From: Escherichia coli
Lineage (GTDB): Bacteria; Pseudomonadota; Gammaproteobacteria; Enterobacterales; Enterobacteriaceae
Assembly (NCBI RefSeq): GCF_050920415.1
Contig: NZ_CP169309.1
Length of the DNA stretch: 64,000 bases
Reading direction: 5' to 3' (one strand)
The translations under genes and the position numbers were made by a program. The notes beneath the pieces were generated by a model. That model was not told the DNA's origin. It saw nothing but the letters and a program-made list of their open reading frames with translations, and ran no database searches. Position 1 is the stretch's first letter; each line of letters begins with the position of its first letter. Positions 3,890 through 59,948 of this stretch are shown here, piece by piece.

Positions 3890-4705
3890 ATGGCGTTCAA
3901 ATTCAAAACCTTTGCGGCAGTGGGAGCCCTGATTGGATCACTGGCACTGGTAGGCTGCGGTCAGGATGAAAAAGATCCAAACCACATTAAAGTCGGCGTG
4001 ATTGTTGGTGCCGAACAGCAGGTTGCAGAAGTCGCGCAGAAAGTCGCGAAAGACAAATATGGCCTGGACGTTGAGCTGGTAACCTTCAACGACTATGTTC
4101 TGCCAAACGAAGCATTGAGCAAAGGCGATATCGACGCCAACGCCTTCCAGCATAAACCGTACCTTGATCAGCAACTGAAAGATCGTGGCTACAAACTGGT
4201 CGCAGTAGGCAACACTTTTGTTTATCCGATTGCTGGTTACTCCAAGAAAATCAAATCACTGGATGAACTGCAGGATGGTTCGCAGGTTGCCGTGCCAAAC
4301 GACCCAACTAACCTTGGTCGTTCACTGCTGCTGCTGCAAAAAGTGGGCTTGATCAAACTGAAAGATGGCGTTGGCCTGTTGCCAACAGTTCTTGATGTTG
4401 TTGAGAACCCAAAAAACCTGAAAATTGTTGAGCTGGAAGCACCGCAGCTGCCGCGCTCTCTGGACGATGCGCAAATCGCTCTGGCGGTTATCAACACCAC
4501 CTATGCCAGCCAGATTGGCCTGACTCCGGCGAAAGACGGTATCTTTGTCGAAGATAAAGAGTCTCCGTACGTAAACCTGATCGTGACGCGTGAAGATAAT
4601 AAAGACGCAGAGAACGTGAAGAAATTCGTCCAGGCTTATCAGTCTGACGAAGTTTACGAAGCAGCGAACAAAGTGTTTAACGGTGGCGCTGTTAAAGGCT
4701 GGTAA
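3890..4705 (+). CDS. metQ: Methionine-binding lipoprotein (ABC substrate-binding protein)
   Basis: 271-aa ORF with lipoprotein signal ...LALVGC. NlpA-family binding protein. Confidence 0.96.
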   Translation: MAFKFKTFAAVGALIGSLALVGCGQDEKDPNHIKVGVIVGAEQQVAEVAQKVAKDKYGLDVELVTFNDYVLPNEALSKGDIDANAFQHKPYLDQQLKDRGYKLVAVGNTFVYPIAGYSKKIKSLDELQDGSQVAVPNDPTNLGRSLLLLQKVGLIKLKDGVGLLPTVLDVVENPKNLKIVELEAPQLPRSLDDAQIALAVINTTYASQIGLTPAKDGIFVEDKESPYVNLIVTREDNKDAENVKKFVQAYQSDEVYEAANKVFNGGAVKGW

Positions 4706-4742
4706 TTTTTAGGCTGTTTCCACAATTTGTAATATCATTCAG

Positions 4743-4771
4743 GACGGGCGCTTGCCCGTCTTGTCATTTTT
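4743..4771 (+). terminator. Rho-independent terminator downstream of metQ
   Basis: GACGGGC-GCTT-GCCCGTC hairpin followed by TTGTCATTTTT. Confidence 0.8.
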
Positions 4772-4822
4772 ACAAGCTCCTGATTCAATATTGACGTTTT
4801 GATCATACATTGAGGAAATACT

Positions 4823-5227
4823 ATGCGTGCTTTACCGATCTGTTTAGTAGCACTCATGCTAAGCGGCTGTTCCATGTTAAGCAGATCCCCTGTCGAACCC
4901 GTTCAAAGCACTGCACCCCAGCCGAAAGCGGAGCCTGCAAAACCGAAAGCACCGCGCGCCGCGCCGGTCCGAATTTATACCAATGCAGAAGAATTAGTCG
5001 GCAAACCATTCCGCGATCTCGGTGAAGTCAGTGGCGATTCTTGCCAGGCCTCTAATCAGGACTCTCCGCCGAGCATTCCAACCGCGCGTAAGCGGATGCA
5101 AATCAATGCCTCTAAAATGAAAGCCAATGCGGTATTACTGCATAGCTGCGAAGTTACCAGCGGTACGCCAGGCTGCTATCGTCAGGCTGTATGTATCGGT
5201 TCTGCGCTTAACATTACGGCGAAATGA
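4823..5227 (+). CDS. rcsF: Outer-membrane lipoprotein RcsF (Rcs phosphorelay sensor)
   Basis: 134-aa ORF with lipobox ...MLSGC and a Pro/Ala/Lys-rich linker. Overlaps the next gene by 4 nt (ATGA). Confidence 0.95.
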   Translation: MRALPICLVALMLSGCSMLSRSPVEPVQSTAPQPKAEPAKPKAPRAAPVRIYTNAEELVGKPFRDLGEVSGDSCQASNQDSPPSIPTARKRMQINASKMKANAVLLHSCEVTSGTPGCYRQAVCIGSALNITAK

Positions 5228-5931
5228 GCAGTTTCCAGTTCGAGCAAATAGGCGTTATTCGCTCGCCCTATAAAGAAAAATTCGCCGTTCCGCGCCAGCC
5301 AGGTCTGGTAAAAAGCGCCAACGGTGAACTGCATCTCATTGCTCCCTACAACCAGGCCGACGCCGTACGCGGCCTGGAGGCGTTCAGCCATTTATGGATA
5401 CTTTTCGTCTTTCATCAAACGATGGAAGGCGGCTGGCGCCCAACTGTGCGTCCGCCTCGTCTTGGTGGTAATGCCAGAATGGGCGTTTTCGCCACACGCT
5501 CTACTTTCCGTCCTAATCCGATTGGTATGTCGCTGGTAGAGCTGAAAGAGGTTGTTTGCCATAAAGACAGCGTGATTCTGAAGCTTGGCAGTCTGGATCT
5601 GGTCGATGGGACGCCAGTGGTGGATATCAAACCGTATCTCCCCTTTGCCGAATCGCTTCCCGATGCCAGCGCCAGCTATGCGCAAAGTGCACCAGCGGCA
5701 GAGATGGCGGTGAGTTTTACCTTAGAGGTCGAAAAGCAGCTTTTGACACTGGAGAAGCGATATCCGCAGTTAACGCTGTTTATCCGCGAAGTACTGGCGC
5801 AGGACCCGCGTCCAGCCTATCGTAAAGGTGAGGATACGGGCAAAACCTATGCCGTCTGGCTGCATAATTTTAACGTTCGCTGGCGCGTCACCGACGCTGG
5901 TTTTGAAGTCTTTGCGCTGGAACCGCGTTAA
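5224..5931 (+). CDS. trmO: tRNA (adenine37-N6)-methyltransferase TrmO (YaeB/TsaA family)
   Basis: 235-aa ORF MSSFQFEQIGVIRSPYKEKFAVPRQPG..., YaeB family. Confidence 0.93.
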   Translation: MSSFQFEQIGVIRSPYKEKFAVPRQPGLVKSANGELHLIAPYNQADAVRGLEAFSHLWILFVFHQTMEGGWRPTVRPPRLGGNARMGVFATRSTFRPNPIGMSLVELKEVVCHKDSVILKLGSLDLVDGTPVVDIKPYLPFAESLPDASASYAQSAPAAEMAVSFTLEVEKQLLTLEKRYPQLTLFIREVLAQDPRPAYRKGEDTGKTYAVWLHNFNVRWRVTDAGFEVFALEPR

Positions 5932-6041
5932 ATTCGCGCCCTTCTCTTTTGACATTTCTTTTGCACTGGTAAACTAAATCACTTTTTTTGTCCCAGGCTC
6001 GCCTTGAGCCTGCTCTACCTTCCAACTGGAACCGTAACAAC

Positions 6042-7760
6042 ATGCGTACTAGCCAATACCTGCTCTCCACTCTTAAGGAGACACCTGCCGACGCCGAGGT
6101 GATCAGCCATCAGCTGATGTTGCGCGCCGGGATGATCCGCAAGCTGGCCTCCGGGTTATACACCTGGCTGCCGACCGGCGTGCGCGTTCTGAAAAAAGTC
6201 GAAAACATCGTGCGTGAAGAGATGAACAACGCCGGTGCGATCGAGGTGTTAATGCCGGTGGTTCAGCCATCTGAACTGTGGCAAGAGAGTGGTCGTTGGG
6301 AACAGTATGGCCCGGAATTGCTGCGTATTGCTGACCGTGGTGACCGTCCGTTCGTACTTGGCCCAACTCATGAAGAAGTGATTACCGACCTGATTCGTAA
6401 CGAGCTGAGCTCTTACAAACAGCTGCCGCTGAACTTCTATCAGATCCAGACCAAGTTCCGTGATGAAGTGCGCCCGCGTTTCGGCGTCATGCGTTCCCGC
6501 GAATTCCTGATGAAAGATGCTTACTCTTTCCATACCTCTCAGGAATCCCTGCAGGAAACCTACGATGCAATGTATGCGGCCTACAGCAAAATCTTCAGCC
6601 GCATGGGGCTGGATTTCCGCGCCGTACAGGCCGATACCGGTTCTATCGGCGGCAGCGCCTCTCACGAATTCCAGGTGCTGGCGCAGAGCGGTGAAGACGA
6701 TGTGGTCTTCTCCGACACCTCTGACTATGCAGCGAACATTGAGCTGGCAGAAGCTATCGCGCCGAAAGAACCGCGCGCTGCTGCTACCCAGGAAATGACG
6801 CTGGTTGATACGCCGAACGCGAAAACCATCGCTGAACTGGTAGAACAATTCAATCTGCCGATTGAAAAAACGGTTAAGACTCTGCTGGTTAAAGCCGTTG
6901 AAGGCAGTAGCTTCCCGCTGGTTGCGCTGCTGGTTCGCGGTGACCACGAGCTGAACGAAGTTAAAGCTGAGAAACTGCCGCAGGTTGCAAGCCCGCTGAC
7001 TTTCGCGACTGAAGAAGAAATTCGTGCCGTGGTTAAAGCCGGTCCGGGTTCACTGGGTCCGGTAAACATGCCGATTCCGGTAGTAATTGACCGTACTGTT
7101 GCGGCGATGAGTGATTTTGCTGCTGGTGCTAACATCGATGGCAAACACTACTTCGGTATCAACTGGGATCGCGATGTCGCAACCCCGGTAGTTGCGGATA
7201 TCCGTAACGTAGTGGCTGGCGATCCAAGCCCGGATGGACAGGGTACGCTGCTGATCAAACGTGGTATCGAAGTCGGTCACATCTTCCAGCTGGGTACTAA
7301 GTACTCCGAAGCACTTAAAGCCTCCGTTCAGGGTGAAGATGGCCGTAATCAGATCCTGACTATGGGTTGCTACGGTATCGGCGTAACGCGCGTAGTAGCT
7401 GCGGCAATTGAGCAGAACTACGACGAACGCGGCATCGTATGGCCTGACGCTATCGCACCTTTCCAGGTGGCGATTCTGCCGATGAACATGCACAAATCCT
7501 TCCGCGTACAGGAGCTGGCTGAGAAACTGTATAGCGAACTGCGCGCACAGGGTATCGAAGTGCTGCTGGATGACCGCAAAGAACGTCCGGGCGTGATGTT
7601 TGCTGATATGGAACTGATCGGTATTCCGCACACTATCGTGTTGGGCGACCGTAACCTCGACAACGACGATATCGAATACAAATACCGTCGTAACGGTGAG
7701 AAACAGTTAATTAAGACCGGTGACATCGTCGATTATCTGGTGAAACAGATTAAAGGCTGA
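6042..7760 (+). CDS. proS: Prolyl-tRNA synthetase
   Basis: Protein [20 protein letters not shown]... The track ORF begins 18 codons upstream at a TTG; the ATG at 6042 matches the known N-terminus. Confidence 0.96.
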
Positions 7761-7767
7761 TGCCAGA

Positions 7768-7797
7768 AAGGGTCCTGAATTTCAGGACCCTTTTTTA
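7768..7797 (+). terminator. Rho-independent terminator downstream of proS
   Basis: GGGTCCTGAA-TTT-CAGGACCC hairpin followed by TTTTTT. Confidence 0.85.
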
Positions 7798-7812
7798 CAT
7801 GGATTGTATAAA

Positions 7813-8637
7813 ATGGATAAACCAAAGGCGCACTGGTGCCTGCTTCTCCCCTGCTTTCTTTCACTTTCGGCCTGTACCGTTGACATCAGCCAGCCAGACT
7901 CATCAGCCACAGCGGTAGATGCCGCGGCAAAAACATGGGCAGTCAAATTCCAGCATCAAAGCTCTTTCACCGAACAATCAATAAAAGAAATAACAGAACC
8001 TGATCTCAAACCCGGCGATTTACTGTTCTCCTCAAGCCTTGGGGTAACCTCATTTGGTATCCGCGTCTTCAGCACTTCCTCTGTGAGCCACGTTGCAATC
8101 TTTTTGGGAGATAATAACGTTGCAGAAGCGACAGGAGATGGCGTCCAGATTGTTTCCCTTAAAAAAGCGATGAAGCATAGTGATAAGCTTTTCGTCTTAC
8201 GAGTTCCGGATCTTACCCCGCAACAAGCCACAGAAATTACCGCGTTTGCCAATAAAATCAAAGATAGCGGTTATAACTATCGCGGCATTGTCGAATTTAT
8301 TCCATTTATGGTGACTCGCCAGATGTGCTCACTGAATCCGTTCTCCGAGGATTTTCGCCAACAGTGCGTCAGCGGCCTGGCGAAAGCGCAGTTAAGCAGT
8401 GTGAGCGAAGGAGACAAAAAGTCGTGGTTTTGTTCGGAATTTGTCACTGATGCATTTGCCAAAGCCGGACATCCGCTTACGCTGGCACAGTCTGGCTGGA
8501 TTAGCCCTGCCGATCTGATGCATATGCGTACTGGCGATGTCTCTGCGTTTAAGCCAGAAACGCAGTTAGAGTATGTCGGGCACTTGAAGCCAGGGATTTA
8601 TATTAAAGCGAGTCGCTTTGTTGGTCTGACTCGGTGA
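7813..8637 (+). CDS. yaeF: Predicted lipoprotein, permuted papain-fold (YiiX/YaeF family) putative peptidase or amidase
   Basis: 274-aa ORF from the ATG at 7813 (a TTG lies 3 codons upstream). Lipobox LSLSAC. His (SHVAIF) precedes Cys (WFCSEF), consistent with a permuted NlpC/P60 arrangement. Confidence 0.85.
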   Translation: MDKPKAHWCLLLPCFLSLSACTVDISQPDSSATAVDAAAKTWAVKFQHQSSFTEQSIKEITEPDLKPGDLLFSSSLGVTSFGIRVFSTSSVSHVAIFLGDNNVAEATGDGVQIVSLKKAMKHSDKLFVLRVPDLTPQQATEITAFANKIKDSGYNYRGIVEFIPFMVTRQMCSLNPFSEDFRQQCVSGLAKAQLSSVSEGDKKSWFCSEFVTDAFAKAGHPLTLAQSGWISPADLMHMRTGDVSAFKPETQLEYVGHLKPGIYIKASRFVGLTR

Positions 8638-8642
8638 TAAAA

Positions 8643-8660
8643 GCCGGAGAATGCTCCGGC
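8643..8660. terminator. Hairpin between convergent yaeF and nlpE (possible bidirectional terminator)
   Basis: GCCGGAG-AATG-CTCCGGC perfect 7-bp stem in a 29-bp convergent spacer. Flanking T-tracts are weak. Confidence 0.45.
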
Positions 8661-8666
8661 ATTCAA

Positions 8667-9377
8667 TTACTGCCCCAAACTACTGCAATCCTGGTTTGGG
8701 TAAAATTTACCTGCCGTATCGGGCGCTAATACTTTGGTTGGCGCACCGTTATCCGGATTAGTCTCAAGCGTAAAGTGACCTTCTACTGACAGTAACACCG
8801 GTTTTTCACTGTTACCGCGCGCAGCCAGGTAGCTACGCTCCAGCTCTGCATTATTCGCTACCATGAAACGTTTTCCGGTCGCACAATCAGTAAAGGTTGC
8901 CGCATCAGCCATATAAAAATACATGCCGCGTAGAGTCATCGGCGTCACTGGCAGGCTGGATTTTGCCGGTTCCAGTGTATAGTTGAACTGCGATTCGATC
9001 GGATTGCCTTCACGATCGAGCATCTCCAACGCATCTCCTTTCGCCCGATAATATGACTTTTCACCTTTACTGTCGGTTAATACCAGTTTGTCAGCGGTTC
9101 GCGCCCATGTACCGTAGGAGGCGAAAGAGAAAGGTTCTTCACGAGCCCCCAGATAACGCTCATTCATCACCCAGGTTCCATCTTTTTCGAGGAACAGAGA
9201 GGTTTCGATACCTTCGCAATCAGCACACGGCAGCACGCCGCGCCAGCTTTGCGGCATCGGCTTCAGTTCAGCGGCCTGCGCCGGAGAAAGCGTATCGACT
9301 TCGGCTCGATTATTACATCCCATCAGAGTAAAGAGGCTGATTACAGCCATCGCTGTCACTATCGCTTTTTTCACCAT
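8667..9377 (-). CDS. nlpE: Outer-membrane lipoprotein NlpE (Cpx pathway activator)
   Basis: 236-aa ORF MVKKAIVTAMAVISLFTLMGC... with lipobox and a CxxC motif (CADC). Confidence 0.95.
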   Translation of the reverse strand: MVKKAIVTAMAVISLFTLMGCNNRAEVDTLSPAQAAELKPMPQSWRGVLPCADCEGIETSLFLEKDGTWVMNERYLGAREEPFSFASYGTWARTADKLVLTDSKGEKSYYRAKGDALEMLDREGNPIESQFNYTLEPAKSSLPVTPMTLRGMYFYMADAATFTDCATGKRFMVANNAELERSYLAARGNSEKPVLLSVEGHFTLETNPDNGAPTKVLAPDTAGKFYPNQDCSSLGQ

Positions 9378-9390
9378 CCATTCCTTCTTT

Positions 9391-9813
9391 TTATTCCCGA
9401 CCGCCGCGCACTTTGCCGCGCAACGCCTTCACGCTTGATTTTTGTGCTTTCGATACCAGCCTGCGCTCTTTTGATGCGCGGGTAGGTCGTGTCGGTCGTC
9501 GGGCTTTTTGTTCTGTTGTTAATTCTTTAATCACTGCCACCAACCGTGCCAGCGCCGCTTCGCGGTTCAGTTCCTGGCTACGGTATTCCTGTGCCTTGAT
9601 GACTATCACTCCATCGCTGCTAATCAGATGATGGCTGGCAGCGAGCAGGCGCTCTTTGTAATACTCTGGCAGGCTGGACGCTCGAATGTCAAAACGCAGA
9701 TGAATAGCCGTTGAGGTCTTATTAACATGCTGTCCGCCCGCGCCCTGTGCACGAATAGCAGTGATCTCAAACTCGCCATTGGGGATAGCAACATGTCGGG
9801 AAATCACAATCAT
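9391..9813 (-). CDS. arfB: Alternative ribosome-rescue factor / peptidyl-tRNA hydrolase ArfB (YaeJ)
   Basis: 140-aa ORF with GGQ motif (AGGQHVNKT) and a basic C-terminal tail. Overlaps the yaeQ stop by 4 nt. Confidence 0.95.
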
Positions 9814-10355
9814 GAAGGTTGTTGCCAGACGGTTAAGTTCACTTCCAGATTATTCTTGTCATCCGATAACCAGATCACGCCATCCTGAATCGTTGCCTGC
9901 AGCGTCATGGTACGATCGGCAAAGGCGCTCACTTTTGCCAGTTGCTCGTCGTCCAGATACCAGACGGAAAGATTGGCAAACTGCGCACATTTACTCTGAT
10001 TTTGCTGCCACCAGATTTGCGCCGCCCGACTATTATAGGCAAACAGCGCCACTTCTGCGGCCTGGGTGCAGGCTTTCTTAATCCGCCGCTCATCCGGCAA
10101 TCCCAGTTCAATCCACAAATCAATGCCCAGATGATCATTACGCAGCCACGCTTCCGGCTCATCATCGGCACACAAACCTCGGGTAAATTGCAGACGTTCA
10201 TCAGCATATTTCAGCCACGCCAGCAGGCGCAGCATCATGCGCTCCTGGGTTTCTGAAGGATGGCGCGCCAGCGTCAGAGAGGCATCGAGAAACTGGTTGC
10301 GGTCGAGATCGGCCACATTAACCGTCGCTTTATAAATTGTCGCTTTAAGCGCCAT
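9810..10355 (-). CDS. yaeQ: YaeQ family protein (PD-(D/E)XK-like fold, function unknown)
   Basis: 181-aa [24 protein letters not shown]..., conserved enterobacterial YaeQ. Confidence 0.9.
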
Positions 10356-10520
10356 AAGAAAACTCCTTTCGAATCAGGAGGCCATTGTAACGGAATACGT
10401 GCAGTTGCGACGCTGATATTGCAGAAATGAGTGTGGTATAGTCACCTTGCGAAACAGAGTTTATCTTCGTAGGCTTAGACTTGCATCCACGGTTAAGTCA
10501 GAGTGCTGACAGGAGGGCAT

Positions 10521-10721
10521 GTGGAAAAATATTGTGAGTTAATACGCAAGCGGTACGCGGAAATCGCCAGCGGAGACTTAGGATACGTTCCGGACGCGCT
10601 GGGCTGCGTTTTGAAAGTGCTGAATGAAATGGCTGCCGACGATGCCCTTTCTGAGGCTGTCAGGGAAAAAGCAGCATACGCTGCGGCAAACTTACTGGTG
10701 AGCGATTATGTCAATGAATGA
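10521..10721 (+). CDS. yaeP: Small conserved protein YaeP (UPF0253)
   Basis: 66-aa protein from a GTG start ([12 protein letters not shown]...). The track ORF begins 6 codons upstream at an ATG. 3' end overlaps rof. Confidence 0.8.
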
Positions 10722-10968
10722 TACGTATCAACCAATCAATTGTGATGATTACGATAATCTTGAGCTCGCCTGCCAGCATCATTTAATGCTGACACTTGAG
10801 CTGAAAGATGGCGAAAAATTGCAGGCGAAGGCCAGCGATTTAGTCTCCCGCAAAAATGTGGAGTATCTGGTCGTCGAGGCCGCTGGTACAACCCGCGAAC
10901 TGCGTCTGGATAAAATTACCAGCTTTAGCCACCCGGAAATCGGTACGGTGGTGGTGAGCGAGTCCTGA
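10714..10968 (+). CDS. rof: Rho-binding antiterminator Rof (YaeO)
   Basis: 84-aa protein [23 protein letters not shown]... An alternative ATG lies 2 codons upstream at 10708. Confidence 0.9.
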
Positions 10969-10976
10969 TTGACTTT

Positions 10977-11009
10977 CGCCGGATGCGACGTTTGATGCGT
11001 CTTATCCGG
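10977..11009. repeat. REP (repetitive extragenic palindrome) between convergent rof and tilS
   Basis: GCCGGATGCGACG...CGTCTTATCCGGC palindromic unit matching the REP consensus. Confidence 0.65.
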
Positions 11010-11020
11010 CTTTCACTTAA

Positions 11021-12316
11021 CTAAGCGTTTCGCCGCCAGACAAAACTTACGCCATTCTCACCTTCAGCCACACCTTCTTGCGTCACAAATACCTCTGCCG
11101 CTGCAATCAGCGTTTCGCCATAAAACAGCAGTGGCGTGGTGTCACGCAACCACGGCGGTACGCCCAGTTCCTGCCAGATTTTCTTTAACTTACGCCCACC
11201 ATTGCGCCCGACAATATGCAGCAATCCTGGCGCTTTGAAACGCACGCTGACCGCTTCGTCTGCACGCGGAGGGCGAATATCGCCTCCCGCAGTAAGCTGT
11301 ACACTTCCCAGCGCCGCCGGTAATTCCAGCGGTTGTAACCACGTCTGCCACGGCACAATGGTTTCGCTTTGCCCAGTGACGGATTTAATCCACCACAGTT
11401 GCGATTGATAGCGGCGGATTTCAAACGCCCCCAAACGTAAACAGGGGGAAGCATCTTCTCGCGCCAGCGCCACTTCCTGCCAGATCCTCACCAACGCGTC
11501 GCGGGAAGGCATCGGTGCATTCTGCCCTGCAAGCCAGCGGCGAATAATCGCCGCGCGACGGGCATCACTCATCGCCAGCATTGGCGCAATCTGCAGCGTT
11601 CCCTGCGGCGTTTGACAGTGTGCTAAATCATCCACCAGCAGTTCATCCAACAGGCTCTCTTGCTCAGCACAAAGTGCGGCGCTGCGGGCCGTTGCTTCGG
11701 CAAAATGCGGCCAACGCTGCTGCAATAACGGCACAACGCGCAGGCGCAGGAAGTTACGATCGTATGAGTCGTCCTGATTACTTTCGTCTTCAATCCAACG
11801 TAAACCATGCGCCAACGCCCACTGCTCCAGTTCTCCCCGCGTGCGGGCGAGCAACGGGCGGATAAGCCGCGTTCCGGCAAACTCCGAGATTTCCGCCATA
11901 GCCGAAAGCCCTGCAGGACCGCTACCGCGTTTTAGCGCCAGCAGAAACGTTTCACATTGATCGTCGAGATGTTGCGCTGTAACCAGCACTTCACCAGGTA
12001 ACAGGGTACGAGCAAATGCCTGATAACGTGCCTGCCGCGCCTGGGCCTCAATACCTAGCCCCTCTTGCGCAAGTTGCACACGCTCAACCACCAGCGGCAC
12101 CTGCCACTGCTGGCAGATATTTTCACAATGTTTCACCCAAGCATCAGCGTTGGCACTTAAACCGTGATGCACATGAATAGCGCGCAGGATGACGCTCGGA
12201 TTTTCCGTCCGCCACTGCACCAACTGATGCAGCAGAACGGTGGAGTCAAGCCCGCCGCTAAAGGCCACCAGAATCTGGCGTGAGATGAGAAGTTGTCTAT
12301 TGAGAGTGAGTGTCAT
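11021..12316 (-). CDS. tilS: tRNA(Ile)-lysidine synthetase
   Basis: 431-aa ORF with PP-loop motif SGGLDS near the N-terminus. Confidence 0.95.
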
Positions 12317-46949: not shown

Positions 46950-46986
46950 CGCCTGATCTTTTCAGGTGCTCAGTGGGGATAGAACA

Positions 46987-47610
46987 ATGCTCGTCTATTG
47001 GCTGGATATAGTCGGCACAGCGGTATTTGCCATCTCCGGCGTTTTGTTAGCCGGAAAATTGCGTATGGACCCTTTTGGTGTCCTGGTATTAGGCGTGGTT
47101 ACCGCAGTAGGCGGCGGGACAATTCGCGACATGGCGCTGGATCACGGCCCGGTCTTTTGGGTGAAAGATCCCACCGATCTGGTTGTTGCAATGGTGACCA
47201 GCATGCTGACGATCGTGCTGGTGCGCCAGCCAAGACGCTTACCGAAATGGATGTTGCCGGTGCTGGATGCCGTTGGTCTGGCGGTGTTTGTCGGCATTGG
47301 CGTGAATAAAGCCTTTAATGCGGAAGCCGGTCCGTTGATCGCGGTTTGTATGGGCGTCATTACTGGCGTTGGCGGCGGGATCATTCGTGATGTACTGGCC
47401 CGCGAAATCCCCATGATTTTACGCACAGAAATCTACGCAACGGCCTGTATTATCGGCGGTATTGTCCACGCTACGGCTTATTACACATTTTCCGTGCCCC
47501 TGGAAACAGCCAGTATGATGGGCATGGTCGTGACGCTATTGATTCGACTGGCGGCTATTCGTTGGCATCTTAAGCTACCGACGTTTGCGCTGGATGAGAA
47601 TGGGCGTTGA
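46987..47610 (+). CDS. yadS: UPF0126/TRIC-like inner-membrane protein
   Basis: 207-aa hydrophobic protein MLVYWLDIVGTAVFAISGVLLAG... with two internally repeated halves (GGGxIRD motif twice). Confidence 0.88.
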   Translation: MLVYWLDIVGTAVFAISGVLLAGKLRMDPFGVLVLGVVTAVGGGTIRDMALDHGPVFWVKDPTDLVVAMVTSMLTIVLVRQPRRLPKWMLPVLDAVGLAVFVGIGVNKAFNAEAGPLIAVCMGVITGVGGGIIRDVLAREIPMILRTEIYATACIIGGIVHATAYYTFSVPLETASMMGMVVTLLIRLAAIRWHLKLPTFALDENGR

Positions 47611-47620
47611 AGAGAGGAGA

Positions 47621-47645
47621 TGTGCCGGATAGCTTATCCGGCACA
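47621..47645. repeat. Perfect inverted repeat between convergent yadS and erpA
   Basis: TGTGCCGGATA-GCT-TATCCGGCACA, 11-bp perfect arms. No canonical U-tract on either strand. Confidence 0.6.
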
Positions 47646-47656
47646 CGAATAAGAGA

Positions 47657-48001
47657 TTAGATGCTGAAGGAAGAACCGCAACCGCAGGTGCTTTTCGCGT
47701 TCGGGTTGGTCACGATGAAACGAGAACCTTCCAGACCTTCGGTATAGTCAACGGAACCGCCGACCAGATATTGCAGGCTCATCGGGTCAACCACCAGGCC
47801 TACGCCCTGTTTTTCGATGGTCATATCGCCTTCATTCACCTGATCATCAAAGGTGAAACCATACTGGAAGCCGCTACAACCGCCACCGGTGATATACACG
47901 CGTAATTTCAGATTCGGGTTATCTTCGTCAGCGATCAGGCTTTTAACTTTGTTGGCTGCTGCGTCGGTAAACTCCAGCGGCAGTGCTACGTCATCACTCA
48001 T
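47657..48001 (-). CDS. erpA: Iron-sulfur cluster insertion protein ErpA (A-type carrier)
   Basis: 114-aa protein [20 protein letters not shown]... with C-terminal CGCGSSF motif. The track ORF is extended 11 codons upstream. Confidence 0.95.
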
Positions 48002-48082
48002 ATTTTGCTCCAAACGACATCGGCAATTGGGCAAATTCTAACCCAATAATAATCGCCATTATCTAATACCCTGGTATTTCGT

Positions 48083-54883: not shown

Positions 54884-57127
54884 TTAGAAACGGAAGGTTG
54901 CGGTTGCAACGACCTGACGTTCTGCGCCCCAGAAGCAGCCATAGGTATTAAAGCAGCTGGCGACGTATTCACGATCGAACAGGTTGTTGACATGCAGCGC
55001 CACGTTGGAGCCCGCCATGCCGACTCGCGCCAGATCATAACGCACTAACGCATCCACGACCGTATAACTTCCCACTTTAAAGGAGTTAGCCGGATCACCA
55101 TAGCTGGAGCCTGTAAAGCGACCGCCAGTACCGAGCGTCAGGCCGGAGAGCGGGCCTTCAAAGAAGGTGTAGTCAGCCCACAGAGAAGCCATGTGTTTTG
55201 GCACCTGCGCAGGCGTGTTGCCTTTGTAGGTAGTATCGGTGGTGTATTCTGCATCGGTGTAAGTATAAGAACCAACTACGTTAACACTCGCCGACAGCGC
55301 CGCTTTCGCTTCGATTTCTACGCCACGCGCGCGGATTTCACCACCTTCAACCGAGAAGAAGGAACCCTCAGGGTCCGCCATCAGGTTGTTGGTTTTAGTG
55401 AGATTATACACAGCACCAGTAACCACAATTGGGCGATCTTCCGGTACATATTTCACGCCGACCTCATACTGCTTACCTTTAGACGGCGCAAAAATATTAC
55501 CATCCTTCCCAACTTGTGAAGAAGGTTCAAACGATTCGCTATAGCTGAAGTAAGGTGTTACACCATTATCAAACAGGTAGTTAACACCACCACGCCAGGT
55601 AAACTGTTTGTCATCACGTTTATCGGTCGTCCCTTCAACGCGGTTATGAGACTCTTGATCCGCCCAGTCATAACGACCGCCCAGGGTGACCAGCACTTTA
55701 TCCCACTGCGCCTGATCCTGAACATAAACACCCGTTTGTTTCTGCTTATTCAGAATGCGGTAAGGGCCGGAGTTTGCCGGATCTTTCGCATTGAAGTCGA
55801 AATCGGTATTCACCGGATTGTACAGATCGAGCAGCGGTACGGAGTCGTCGTAACCAAACCAGGCGTTGATGTCATTACGCATACGCATAAAGTCGACACC
55901 GGTCAGCAGAGTGTGGTCGATATCGCCAGTGGCAAACTTGCTCTGCAACTGGGTATCAACGGAGAAGTTTTGCAGCTTCTCATCATCAACGACGTATTTA
56001 CGTGCCAGGTAGTGACCTTTATCGGCTGGCGCTAAAGCGGCACACTGTTTGCTGTAAGCATTCGCCGGATCGGAGCAGACGCCGTAACCATAAACGCTGT
56101 TTTGCGAGGTTTTGTTTTCAGCAAAGCGCAGGTTCTGACGCACCGTAAAGGTGTCGTTAAATTCGTGATCGAAGCTGTAGCCCACCATCTTCTCATTACG
56201 AGAATAGGTGTTGTTCTTCGCCCCTTCGTTAAAATCTGTCGGCAGACGCTTACCGTTCGGCAGCGGCTCAACGGTTCCCTCTTTCGGCAGCCAGCCGTAA
56301 TAACCGGTTTCCGGCTCGTTCTGGAAGTAAAAAAGGAAGGTGAAATTGGTTTTATCATCCGGGCGCCAGGTGAACGCTGGAGCAATAGCATAACGCTGCT
56401 CTTCTGCCCCCTTCTGCTGAGCATTGGCTGAACGCGCAATACCAGTCAGACGATAAGAGTAAACGCCGTCATCATCCAGCGCATCACTGAAGTCAAAACC
56501 AGTCTGGAACAGGCTGTCAGTACCGGCTTTAAACTGAATTTCTTTCAGCGGTTCTGTAGTCGGGCGCTTGCTGACCATGTTCAACAGGCCGCCAGGACTG
56601 CTTTTACCGTAAAGCACTGAAACCGGACCACGCATAATTTCAGCGCGTTCCAGCATATACGGGTCAATAACTGCATCGTTATAGAAGTTGCCTTGCAACT
56701 TCAGACCGTTGAGATAGTTATTCTGGCTTTGGCCTTCTGCTGCAAAACCACGAATAATCAAATGATCATAAGTGTTTGATGCACCACGCGTACCGACCGA
56801 AACGCCTGGCGTATAGCTAAGAGCTTCTTTTACCGACTTCGGCTGATGCAGCGCCATCTCTTCGGCGGTCACAACAGAAATAGACTGTGGCACTTTTTGA
56901 ATCGGTGTATCGGTTTTGGTGCCGGTAGCGGACTGTCGCGCCGCAATAGTTGCAGCTGGCCCCCATGCGCTTTCTTGCGGCGCTGGTGCAGCGGTAACGG
57001 TGATAGTGTCTTCTTTCGGTTCAACCGCTGCCTGTGCGTAAACAGACATGCCGCTAACCGCTGTGGCTACTACAACTGCGATTTTACGCAGTGAGTGTTT
57101 TGGCTGAGCAGTTTTGGAACGCGCCAT
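54884..57127 (-). CDS. fhuA: TonB-dependent ferrichrome outer-membrane receptor
   Basis: 747-aa ORF with signal peptide, TonB box (DTITVTA) and C-terminal beta-barrel ending ...ATATFRF. Confidence 0.97.
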   Translation of the reverse strand: MARSKTAQPKHSLRKIAVVVATAVSGMSVYAQAAVEPKEDTITVTAAPAPQESAWGPAATIAARQSATGTKTDTPIQKVPQSISVVTAEEMALHQPKSVKEALSYTPGVSVGTRGASNTYDHLIIRGFAAEGQSQNNYLNGLKLQGNFYNDAVIDPYMLERAEIMRGPVSVLYGKSSPGGLLNMVSKRPTTEPLKEIQFKAGTDSLFQTGFDFSDALDDDGVYSYRLTGIARSANAQQKGAEEQRYAIAPAFTWRPDDKTNFTFLFYFQNEPETGYYGWLPKEGTVEPLPNGKRLPTDFNEGAKNNTYSRNEKMVGYSFDHEFNDTFTVRQNLRFAENKTSQNSVYGYGVCSDPANAYSKQCAALAPADKGHYLARKYVVDDEKLQNFSVDTQLQSKFATGDIDHTLLTGVDFMRMRNDINAWFGYDDSVPLLDLYNPVNTDFDFNAKDPANSGPYRILNKQKQTGVYVQDQAQWDKVLVTLGGRYDWADQESHNRVEGTTDKRDDKQFTWRGGVNYLFDNGVTPYFSYSESFEPSSQVGKDGNIFAPSKGKQYEVGVKYVPEDRPIVVTGAVYNLTKTNNLMADPEGSFFSVEGGEIRARGVEIEAKAALSASVNVVGSYTYTDAEYTTDTTYKGNTPAQVPKHMASLWADYTFFEGPLSGLTLGTGGRFTGSSYGDPANSFKVGSYTVVDALVRYDLARVGMAGSNVALHVNNLFDREYVASCFNTYGCFWGAERQVVATATFRF

Positions 57128-57147
57128 TGGTATATCTCTGATGTAAA

Positions 57148-57192
57148 GTGAATGATAACGTAAACGAGAATGATTATTATAAAGATAAGATA
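57148..57192 (-). promoter_or_regulatory. Putative Fur box in the fhuA promoter region
   Basis: A/T-rich region with GAGAATGATTATTATAAAG and GTGAATGATAACG, partial matches to the Fur consensus GATAATGATAATCATTATC, 20-65 nt upstream of the fhuA start. Confidence 0.5.
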
Positions 57193-57305
57193 ATATTCGA
57201 AACGCTGGCGGGTTCGCAAGCGGTACGCAATCTGAGCGTTCCTGAAGGGTTAATAAACAACCAGATGAAAAGAAAGGGTTAATACTTTAGGTGGGATGTT
57301 ATTTT

Positions 57306-57330
57306 ACCGGATGGCAACTCGCCATCCGGT
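57306..57330. repeat. Inverted repeat between the mrcB 3' end and the fhuA promoter
   Basis: ACCGGATGGC-loop-GCCATCCGGT, perfect 10-bp arms. No clear U-tract. Confidence 0.4.
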
Positions 57331-57346
57331 ATGTCACGCTTAGACG

Positions 57347-59881
57347 TTAATTACTACCAAACATATCCTTGATCCAACCTGCTACGCCGTCACTGTCTTT
57401 CTGCTCTTGCTGAGCAGGTTGCTGTTGCGGCTGTTGCTGCGGCTGAGAAGACTGATCAAACGGATTGCCTGACGGTTGCTGCTGCATCTCACTCTGCTGG
57501 CACAGCGATTGCGGATCGCTGGTCCAGACCGGTAAGACACGCATGCCCCCGCTGCAGACAAAGTTGCCGTCGTAGTCCACGCCCATATCAGCAATGTCTT
57601 CTGGCGGAACAAGATTCAGCGGTGTTGGTGTCTGGTTAGCCAGATAACGCTGATAAATCGACATTGCCCCACTGGCACCATACAGTTTGGTCGGCTGGTT
57701 GTTATCACGGCCTACCCAGGTGATGGTCACCGTGCTGCCGTCAATGCCCGCAAACCAGGTATCCACGTTGTTGTTGGTAGTCCCGGTTTTGCCCGCCAGA
57801 TGCAGGTTCGGGTATTTCGCCCCAAGCTGACGACCCGTACCGCGTTGTACCACCTGCTGCATGGTCCATAGTGTCAGATACGCCGCCTGCGCCGGAACCG
57901 CGCGTTCCGCCTGCGGGAAGCTCTGATACAACACCTTGCCATCTTCCGCGATTACCGAACGCAGCGCAGAAAGCGGTGCTCGATTACCACCACTAGCGAT
58001 GGTCTGGAACGCCTGCGCCACTTCAATTGGCGTTAAGTTCAACGCCCCCAGCAGCATTGCCGGAACCGGATGCAGCTGATCTTTCGGTACGCCCAGTTTA
58101 ATCCAGGTATCCGTAACCGCAGGCAGACCCAGCGCCATCCCCAGATTCACCGTCGGCACGTTCATCGAACGTGTCAACGCATCCACCAGCATCACTCTGC
58201 CACTTTCGCTATAACGACGATCATCGTTCTGCGGTGACCAGACCTGGCCATTCGGCTGACGCAGCGCGATTGGCGCATCGGCAATCCACGTGTTCAGGCG
58301 ATAGATTTTCGGCTGGCTTAAGGCCGTCAGATAAGTCGCTGGTTTTGCAAGGGAACCAATCGAACGACGCGCCTGCATCGCACGGTTGTAACCTGCAAAC
58401 TGCGGCTCAGAACCACCAACCATCGCGCGAACTTCACCGCTAAAGCGGTCGACAACCACAATTGCCGTTTCCAGATCGCTCAGCTTTCGCTGTTTCTTCA
58501 GCGCCGGAATACCTTCCACGGCGGCTTTTTCTGCCGCGTCCTGGGCCACCGAGTCAAAGGTAGTGAAGATCTTCACGCCGGAGAGATCTTTCACTTTATC
58601 GCCCAGTTTCGCCTGTAGCTCCTGACGCACCAGTTGCATAAAGGCTGGCTGTGGAGAGATTACCCCGCCGCGCGGCTGAACCCCCAGCGGACGTGCACTC
58701 AACATGTCATAGAGCTCTTGATCAATAATCTGCTGTTGTTGCAGCAGACGCAGCACCAGGTTACGTCGCTCCAGCGCCAGTTTCGGGTTACGCCACGGGT
58801 TGTAGATGGACGCTCCTTTCACCATACCCACCAACAGCGCCTGCTGATCGAGGCTCAATTCTTCTACCGGGCGACCAAAGTAATACAAGCTCGCCAGCGG
58901 GAAGCCGCGGATTTCGTTGTCGCCGCTCTGACCGAGATACACCTCGTTCATATACAGCTCAAGAATGCGGTCTTTGCTGTAACGCGCATCCATGATCAGC
59001 GCCATGTAGGCTTCGTTCGCTTTACGCCAGTAAGAACGTTCGCTGGAGAGGAACAGGTTTTTCACCAACTGTTGCGTCAGCGTACTCGCTCCCTGCACCG
59101 TGCGTCCGGCGGTCAGGTTTGCCAGCACCGCACGTCCGATGGAGTAGAGACTGATCCCATCATGCTCGTAGAAATGACGGTCTTCTGTCGCCAGCAAAGT
59201 ATCCACCAGCAAATCCGGGAAACCACTGCGCGGCACAAACAGACGTTGCTCACCGTTTGGTGAAGAGATCATAGTGATCAGGCGCGGATCAAGACGGAAG
59301 AAACCGAACTGACGGTTGTTCTCCATATTGACGATCGTCGCCAGATGATCGCCATCAAAGGTCAGACGCGCACGCACCTGTCCTTCTTTGCTGTCCGGGA
59401 AATCAAACGGACGACGGATCATCTCAATGCTGTTGGCCTGCACGGTAAATTCGCCAGGGCGCGTCATTTTCGACACCTGACGATACTGGGTCGCCTCCAG
59501 CAGCTTCACCATCTCGTTTTTGCTGATGGTCATGTCTGGCTCAAGGTTGACCATTCGGCCATAAACAGCCGCAGGCAATTGCCAGACTTTGCCATCAATA
59601 CGGCTACGAATTTTTTGATCGAGATAAACGCCGTAAATGGCGATCAGCACGGCAAAAACAATAGCCAGTTTTAGCAGCAGCCATAGCCAGCCGCGTTTGC
59701 CACGAGGCTTACGCCCTTTGCCTTTGCCCTTACCTTTGCGCGGCATCGGTTCTTCATCCTCATAGTCATCATAATCGTCGTAATCATCGTCATCTTCGTA
59801 ACGACGACGGCTTACCTTTTGTTTGACCGGACGCGTCGGTTTCCCTTTGCGTCCAATTGGCTCGCGGTCATTCCCGGCCAT
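57347..59881 (-). CDS. mrcB: Penicillin-binding protein 1B (bifunctional transglycosylase/transpeptidase)
   Basis: 844-aa protein [22 protein letters not shown]... with acidic and basic N-terminal clusters, TM segment, transpeptidase and Q-rich C-terminus. The track ORF is extended 5 codons upstream. Confidence 0.97.
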
Positions 59882-59924
59882 GCTTTTTCTCCGCAATATT
59901 CAGGCGCAAAAGCCCGATTTTCTG

Positions 59925-59948
59925 TTCTTCTGTAACAAGACAGAAGAA
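59925..59948. other. A/T-rich hairpin in the hrpB-mrcB spacer
   Basis: TTCTTCTGT-AACAAG-ACAGAAGAA, 9-bp perfect arms. Confidence 0.3.

Follow-up and report, generated by a model that had tools for sequence, protein, structure and literature searches.

What separates the transcript of mrcB from that of fhuA, the next gene on the same strand of the Escherichia coli chromosome? Several phages, colicin M and albomycin use FhuA as their receptor, and Fur keeps it off while iron is abundant. Transcription running on from the constitutive mrcB would cause leaky FhuA synthesis, and a transcript boundary at this junction therefore has a clear purpose. We analysed a 64,000-nt stretch of an E. coli chromosome (hereafter the window), in which hrpB, mrcB, fhuA and then fhuC follow one another on the minus strand (Table 1). 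An earlier note on this stretch had pointed to a perfect 10-bp inverted repeat between mrcB and fhuA and had suggested that it might insulate the iron-regulated gene. It had missed that the genes lie on the minus strand, that the element is REP-like and recurs almost identically at two other E. coli loci and that the element is absent from 577 of 5426 complete E. coli genomes. We propose, with a probability that we put at about 0.55, that the dyad is a REP-like stem-loop of the mrcB 3' UTR, which would serve as the exonuclease barrier of a Rho-terminated transcript and not as a stand-alone terminator.

Table 1. Features around the mrcB–fhuA junction of the window, listed in the order in which the minus strand is transcribed
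Feature	Position	Strand	Details
hrpB	62449-59975	-	
mrcB (PBP1b) CDS	57347..59881	-	stop TAA 57349-57347; NCBIfam PBP1b 1735 bits; start 59881 set by length equivalence to the K-12 annotation, the mechanical ORF extending to a TTG at 59896
Spacer, mrcB stop codon to hairpin base	57332..57346	-	15 nt
Stem-loop	57305..57331	-	11-bp perfect arms 57331-57321 and 57315-57305 (mRNA order), 5-nt loop GAGTT 57320-57316
C-rich, G-poor stretch, candidate rut (Rho loading) region	57225..57304	-	base composition; rut function inferred
Sigma-70-like promoter match TTGCGA-18-TATTAT, upstream of fhuA	57190..57219	-	both hexamer regions conserved in Salmonella and Citrobacter
Fur-box-like CTTTATAATAATCATTCTC	57166..57184	-	best match, 14/19 to GATAATGATAATCATTATC; overlaps TATAAT
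fhuA CDS	54884..57127	-	NCBIfam FhuA 1467 bits; ATG 177 nt downstream of the hairpin

Read as mRNA, the junction is TAA-15 nt-TACCGGATGGC-GAGTT-GCCATCCGGTA-AAAATAACAT, the stem-loop being followed by AAAATAACATCCC. The arms, TACCGGATGGC and GCCATCCGGTA, pair perfectly over 11 bp, seven of them G-C, and the 10-bp arms reported before are their inner part; the placement of the dyad directly 3' of mrcB and upstream of a fhuA promoter with a Fur-box also holds. The predicted fold of the 27-nt hairpin RNA has -20.1 kcal/mol (z = -6.25), a stability that was never reached in 200 shuffles. The repeat exceeds chance: when arms must pair perfectly over 11 bp or more and loops may span 3-10 nt, the window contains three inverted repeats, whereas 100 dinucleotide shuffles contain 0.14 on average and never more than 1. 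A scan of 56900-57700 against Rfam (E up to 10) returned noise only, with no match at the dyad.

The surroundings of the hairpin contain further sequence features. On the fhuA side, the Fur-box-like block is invariant across genera in the alignment, and upstream of the promoter a second block (57240-57290, minus strand; TTATTAACCCTTTCTTTTCATCTGGTT..TTAACCC) hardly varies between E. coli, Salmonella and Citrobacter. This second block holds TATTAACCCTT twice, 29 nt apart, as a direct repeat (57284-57274 / 57255-57245). It might act as an upstream promoter element, be bound by a regulator or contribute to a Rho loading region. On the other side of mrcB, the 93-nt hrpB-mrcB spacer contains, just upstream of mrcB, a perfect 9-bp inverted repeat, TTCTTCTGT-AACAAG-ACAGAAGAA (59925-59948). 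Adams et al. (2021) give a 3' end in K-12 at 94 nt upstream of mrcB; the K-12 hrpB-mrcB spacer differs in length from that of the window. At the hrpB stop codon, K-12 has an extra G+C-rich mosaic repeat of about 100 nt (L087 4534-4635, compared with 59975-59960 of the window), with the motifs CCCTCTCCC / GGGAGAGGG / GGGGTGAGGG; the repeat is absent from the window and from E2348/69. Two Enterobacter species (L061 and L066) have elements similar to this mosaic repeat past their mrcB stop codons.

Could the hairpin end the mrcB transcript by itself? The feature of intrinsic terminators that lets a hairpin release RNA polymerase is the U-tract. Measured against a criterion of about five or more U in 8 nt, the mRNA strand (AAAAUAAC / AAAUAACA) has one U in the 8 nt 3' of the stem; on the opposite strand, where AUGUCACG follows the stem, there is no U-tract either, and the T-run of that strand lies 5' of the hairpin. 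The lack of a U-tract had already been noticed in the earlier note. The hairpin is called neither by the terminator scan nor by our re-implementation of it, and with no U-tract on either strand we rejected an intrinsic terminator. The idea that the hairpin alone acts as a Rho-independent terminator of mrcB, and thereby shields fhuA, is thus left with a poor prospect: the place and strength of the hairpin would suit such a role, and orthologous positions in most other genera are occupied by true intrinsic terminators, but the defining U-tract is missing on both strands, the scan makes no call, and the alternative hairpin that other Escherichia genomes carry at this position likewise has no U-tract. 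The insulation proposed earlier therefore divides into two parts. That mrcB and fhuA are separated at this spot gains comparative support from the intrinsic terminators of other genera; that the hairpin itself brings this about is unlikely, because the U-tract is lacking.

That comparative support comes from 80 fetched Enterobacteriaceae mrcB loci, or 81 counting the window. Almost all of them have a hairpin within a few tens of nucleotides of the mrcB stop codon, and at 59 of the 81 a canonical intrinsic terminator with a U-tract occupies the same position; several of the remaining loci are near-misses, with four U or a bulged stem. The terminator sequences are unrelated between genera, as illustrated by Citrobacter (AAAACCCGCTTCGGCGGGTTTTT) and Enterobacter (CCCCCTTC...GAAGGGGG), so that the element is conserved in position and not in sequence. 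REP sequences stand there instead in Salmonella enterica subsp. arizonae and diarizonae, in C. amalonaticus and in two others. The outer arms of the inverted REP pair of Salmonella and C. amalonaticus (GCCGGATGGC... and ...GCCATCCGGTAAT or GCCATCCGGCAAAT) align with the E. coli arms, and the sequence 3' of the pair, AATAACAT..TTATTAACCCTTTCTTTTCATCTGG, is collinear with E. coli. We considered from this arm alignment that a two-REP BIME might have collapsed in situ, its outer arms becoming fused by a central deletion. We downgraded this scenario because the same stem and loop recur between ygiC and ygiD and between ung and yfiF, which suggests a shared repeat type and not three independent collapses. 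A separate peculiarity concerns Intestinirhabdus alba (L024), in which about 60 nt with the mrcB terminator (~3899-3960) recur about 270 nt later (~4159-4220), within the first part of fhuA; either a local duplication has disrupted fhuA there, or the assembly is at fault.

How constant is the hairpin within Escherichia? Of 5426 complete E. coli genomes, 4849 have its 57-nt region, and the loop allele GAGTT, the exact hairpin, accounts for 3494 of them, followed by GAGCT (474 genomes) and GAATT (366 genomes). In a sensitive search with a 30-mer, 3494 matches were exact, 1266 differed by a single mismatch and 96 fell into the 90-95% band. In all 23 Escherichia sequences that were read, including matches from the low-identity end, the arms are intact, with six different loops between them (GAGTT, GAGCT, GAATT, GAGTA, GAGTC and GAGCA); about 500 genomes with hairpin variants lie outside this set. 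Among 15 distinct alleles, drawn from E. coli, E. whittamii, two further Escherichia species and metagenome contigs, none of the 22 stem positions varies, compared with three of five in the loop and 13 of 37 in the flanks (stem 0/22 versus loop and flanks 16/42; Fisher p = 0.0005, in a test that ignores shared ancestry). The spacer between stop codon and hairpin has six variable positions, and its length is 15 nt in 14 of the 15 alleles and 14 nt in the remaining one (L097). The hairpin is thus kept intact across Escherichia, presumably by selection. As the stem never varies, the 15 alleles contain no compensatory substitutions, and pairing is supported by conservation only; selection for RNA pairing and upkeep of a palindrome at the DNA level are for this reason inseparable.

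The hairpin region is missing from 577 of the 5426 genomes; in the three of these that were inspected, a fimbrial island with another hairpin appears to stand in its stead. In E2348/69 (NC_011601.1), a 5.3-kb operon (L006 6988-12265) replaces 79 nt of the junction, corresponding to 57346-57268 of the window. It is a four-gene chaperone-usher fimbrial operon, encoding a fimbrial subunit, a frameshifted chaperone, an usher and an adhesin-sized fimbrial protein; M22546 and WL297, which also lack the hairpin, have a fimbrial gene directly upstream of fhuA. For the fhuA-proximal part of these 79 nt, Citrobacter and Salmonella have homologous sequence, and the island state is therefore the derived one at this junction. 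Directly past the mrcB stop codon, E2348/69 carries an unrelated hairpin, GCTCTCCGC-TTAT-GCGGAGAGC, which folds at -19.7 kcal/mol in context, has no U-tract and is shared with E. albertii and the GTDB E. coli representative. Both Escherichia alleles put a strong hairpin devoid of a U-tract 10-15 nt past the mrcB stop codon. Three matches to the mrcB-fhuA spacer sit on records labelled as plasmids and may be mislabelled chromosomal pieces.

Where might the compact hairpin come from? The 30-mer search found a second locus, TACCGGATGGC-GAGT-GCCATCCGGTA, with arms identical to those at mrcB, between the convergent genes ygiC and ygiD, where the stop codons are 7 nt away on the ygiC side and 4 nt away on the ygiD side. 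A third, GCCGGATGGC-AGAGTT-GCCATCCGGC, came to light in a scan of metagenomes that was followed up by a search. It stands between ung and yfiF, which are again convergent, at 14 and 7 nt from the two stop codons; Nissle-type strains have it without mismatch, whereas in K-12 a single A-C mismatch interrupts it. The metagenome pattern, CCGGATGGC-N3-6-GCCATCCGG, matched at least 120 loci, and the matches listed are mostly unrelated G+C-rich palindromes, many of them ordinary terminators of other organisms, with three informative E. coli contexts among them. A stem and loop shared at unlinked loci mean a common origin, and the mrcB hairpin thus belongs to a small family of REP-like repeats. A conserved GTAG/CTAC next to the REP palindrome is a transposase recognition feature. 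No such tetranucleotide stands beside the palindrome at any of the three loci, the flanks being GACA/AAAT at mrcB, ACGA/ATTG at ygiC-ygiD and AAAT/TGAT at ung-yfiF.

Two further hairpins with the REP-type core CCGGAT...ATCCGG occur in the window (47621-47645 and 10976-11012), where chance would give 0.15 such matches. One, TGTGCCGGATAGCTTATCCGGCACA, is palindromic over 11 bp without a mismatch and lies between the convergent ORFs 46966-47610 (+) and 47657-48034 (-), and the other is a longer REP-like element that has no CTAC end. As for K-12 (NC_000913.3), four stretches of its record, in the copy used here (L087, L102, L223 and L224), carry no repeat or REP feature at all, even though one of the four, 4500-12000, is a region with such an annotation, so that the absence of a REP annotation at mrcB is no evidence.

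How might a hairpin that lacks a U-tract mark the end of mrcB? In E. coli, Rho-dependent transcripts have precise steady-state 3' ends just past stable stem-loops without U-tracts, which according to the data of the same study shield them from PNPase and RNase II; the rut sites follow at once on the downstream side, and ends of this type are enriched in REP elements (Dar and Sorek, 2018; PMC6061677). We envision that RNA polymerase passes through the mrcB hairpin, which in the absence of a U-tract would not cause release. With the ribosomes having left at the mrcB stop codon, Rho would load on the naked, C-rich and G-poor RNA that starts right past the hairpin, and would end transcription within about 180 nt, before or around the fhuA promoter. 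The 3'-to-5' exonucleases PNPase and RNase II would then trim the tail up to the stem-loop of -20 kcal/mol and be blocked there, and the outcome would be a defined and stable mrcB 3' end, together with little read-through into the iron-regulated fhuA. Our analysis shows that the hairpin exists and is selectively maintained, that it has relatives elsewhere, that it corresponds in position to the terminators of other genera and that the RNA past it is rut-like in composition; the involvement of Rho, the blocking of exonucleases and the insulating effect are inferred.

The composition of the downstream RNA is striking in its first 40 nt (57304-57265), which contain 11 C and a single G. Values as extreme as this occur in 24 of 127,922 40-nt windows (0.02%), which fall at five places when both strands of the 64 kb are considered; over the first 78 nt, the C/G ratio is 2.2, within the top 0.76% of windows in what is a test of composition only. 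The 40 nt 3' of the hairpin thus resemble, in their base composition, a Rho loading site. Genera with an intrinsic terminator at this place nevertheless conserve the 3' half of the C-rich stretch (~57290-57240) as well, which implies that the composition may serve the upstream regulation of fhuA and not Rho loading. Among published maps, the supplementary text of Adams et al. (2021), as far as it was accessible, has no 3' end or bicyclomycin-sensitive site at K-12 167,28x-167,33x, and the accessible parts of the TERMITe and SMRT-Cappable-seq supplements have no mrcB entry; in each case mrcB may be too weakly expressed. Our search for published text on mrcB or ponB in connection with fhuA, a terminator or bicyclomycin found nothing relevant.

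Alternatively, the element might do nothing for either gene. It could be a functionally neutral REP-type remnant that landed or decayed here and is intact owing to a process at the DNA level, for instance gene conversion (between copies or between arms), or because it is young, in which case neither mrcB nor fhuA would have a selected use for it. The near-identical copies at ygiC/ygiD and ung/yfiF would fit such an origin, as would the REP pair at the orthologous site of Salmonella and C. amalonaticus, the outer arms of which align with those of E. coli, the genomes that manage without the element and the stems that show no compensatory change. Yet in E. coli, E. whittamii and two further Escherichia species the stem does not vary while loop and flanks diverge, the genomes of the E2348/69 type that lack this hairpin carry another strong one in its place, and the presence of a hairpin here in almost every genus points to a need for a 3' structure; we consider neutrality rather unlikely. 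We would be similarly hesitant to separate the copies from REP elements altogether. A distinct, compact family of perfect-stem palindromes may conceivably exist in Escherichia, with the consensus (T/G)(A/C)CCGGATGGC-(A)GAGT(T)-GCCATCCGG(T/C)(A/-), settling 4-15 nt from stop codons, which at mrcB would have displaced the intrinsic terminator that most other Enterobacteriaceae retain; we offer this as a tentative extension that will probably prove too bold. If it were true, the mrcB/fhuA boundary would have shifted from intrinsic to Rho-dependent, and the termination of MrcB translation would possibly be throttled.

Such throttling is also conceivable for a solitary element. According to a summary in PMC12306157, a stable REP-type hairpin at a distance of less than 16 nt from a stop codon impedes the ribosome as it terminates and reduces the output of the upstream protein (Liang, Rudd and Deutscher, 2015). 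By analogy, a stable hairpin near the mrcB stop codon might act as a brake on translation termination, an activity that could exist beside a role at the 3' end. The mrcB stem begins exactly 15 nt past the stop codon, below the threshold of 16 nt and with a spacing that is kept in all but one of the 15 alleles, and the two other copies of the family lie 4-14 nt from stop codons. However, 15 nt is the very edge of the reported range, and membership of the element in REP proper is not established, which makes a brake a doubtful proposition. Finally, the palindrome might be read as DNA, either as the operator of a dimeric fhuA regulator or as a REP-type site associated with gyrase or IHF. A perfect palindrome upstream of a regulated promoter invites this thought, but the dyad is near the mrcB stop codon and precedes the promoter hexamers by about 110 bp, its copies at ygiC/ygiD and ung/yfiF stand between convergent gene ends and not at promoters, and the unrelated hairpins found at the same position in other genera fit a requirement for structure and not the recognition of a sequence. 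A protein site on the DNA is accordingly hard to credit.

What does the locus teach? It offers a natural example of a boundary that is kept while its sequence, and probably its mechanism, turns over. Most genera have an intrinsic terminator at this place and Salmonella has a REP pair, whereas most E. coli have the compact REP-like hairpin without a U-tract and E2348/69-like genomes with the fimbrial island another hairpin without a U-tract. None of this is categorically new for bacterial 3' ends, and the matter is a modest one: the mrcB hairpin is an ordinary gene-end element of a known kind, of which we found no specific description.

Which known kind does it resemble most closely? With intrinsic terminators it has in common a G+C-rich, stable hairpin directly past a stop codon, at a position where true terminators stand in most of the orthologous loci; unlike them, it is not followed by a U-tract. 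With the REP and BIME elements of enterobacteria it shares an extragenic location, a palindromic structure, repetition at the ends of other genes and the core CCGGAT...ATCCGG, and its 5' arm agrees with the original REP consensus, GC(g/t)GATGGCG, at nine of ten positions, as far as the consensus could be taken from the sources at hand. In contrast to REP elements, again as described in those sources, its 3' arm does not have the CTTATC or CTTATC(c/a)GGCCTAC form; it is also shorter (27 nt), its stem is perfect and free of the usual central mismatch, and the 30-mer search and the metagenome scan found three copies in E. coli, compared with hundreds for REP proper. REPs have been reported to stabilise upstream mRNA (Newbury et al., 1987, as cited in a later paper). 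To the REPs that hinder terminating ribosomes (Liang, Rudd and Deutscher, 2015, in the summary mentioned above) the mrcB hairpin can be likened by position alone, sharing their closeness to the stop codon at a borderline distance. The nearest relatives are in all likelihood the 3' stem-loops without U-tails of Dar and Sorek (2018). These belong to transcripts with mapped ends and Rho dependence, whereas mrcB is likened to them by sequence alone; the mrcB stem-loop is, like theirs, stable, situated just past the coding sequence, without a U-tail and followed by a C-rich, G-poor candidate rut region, and it fits each sequence-level criterion of the class.
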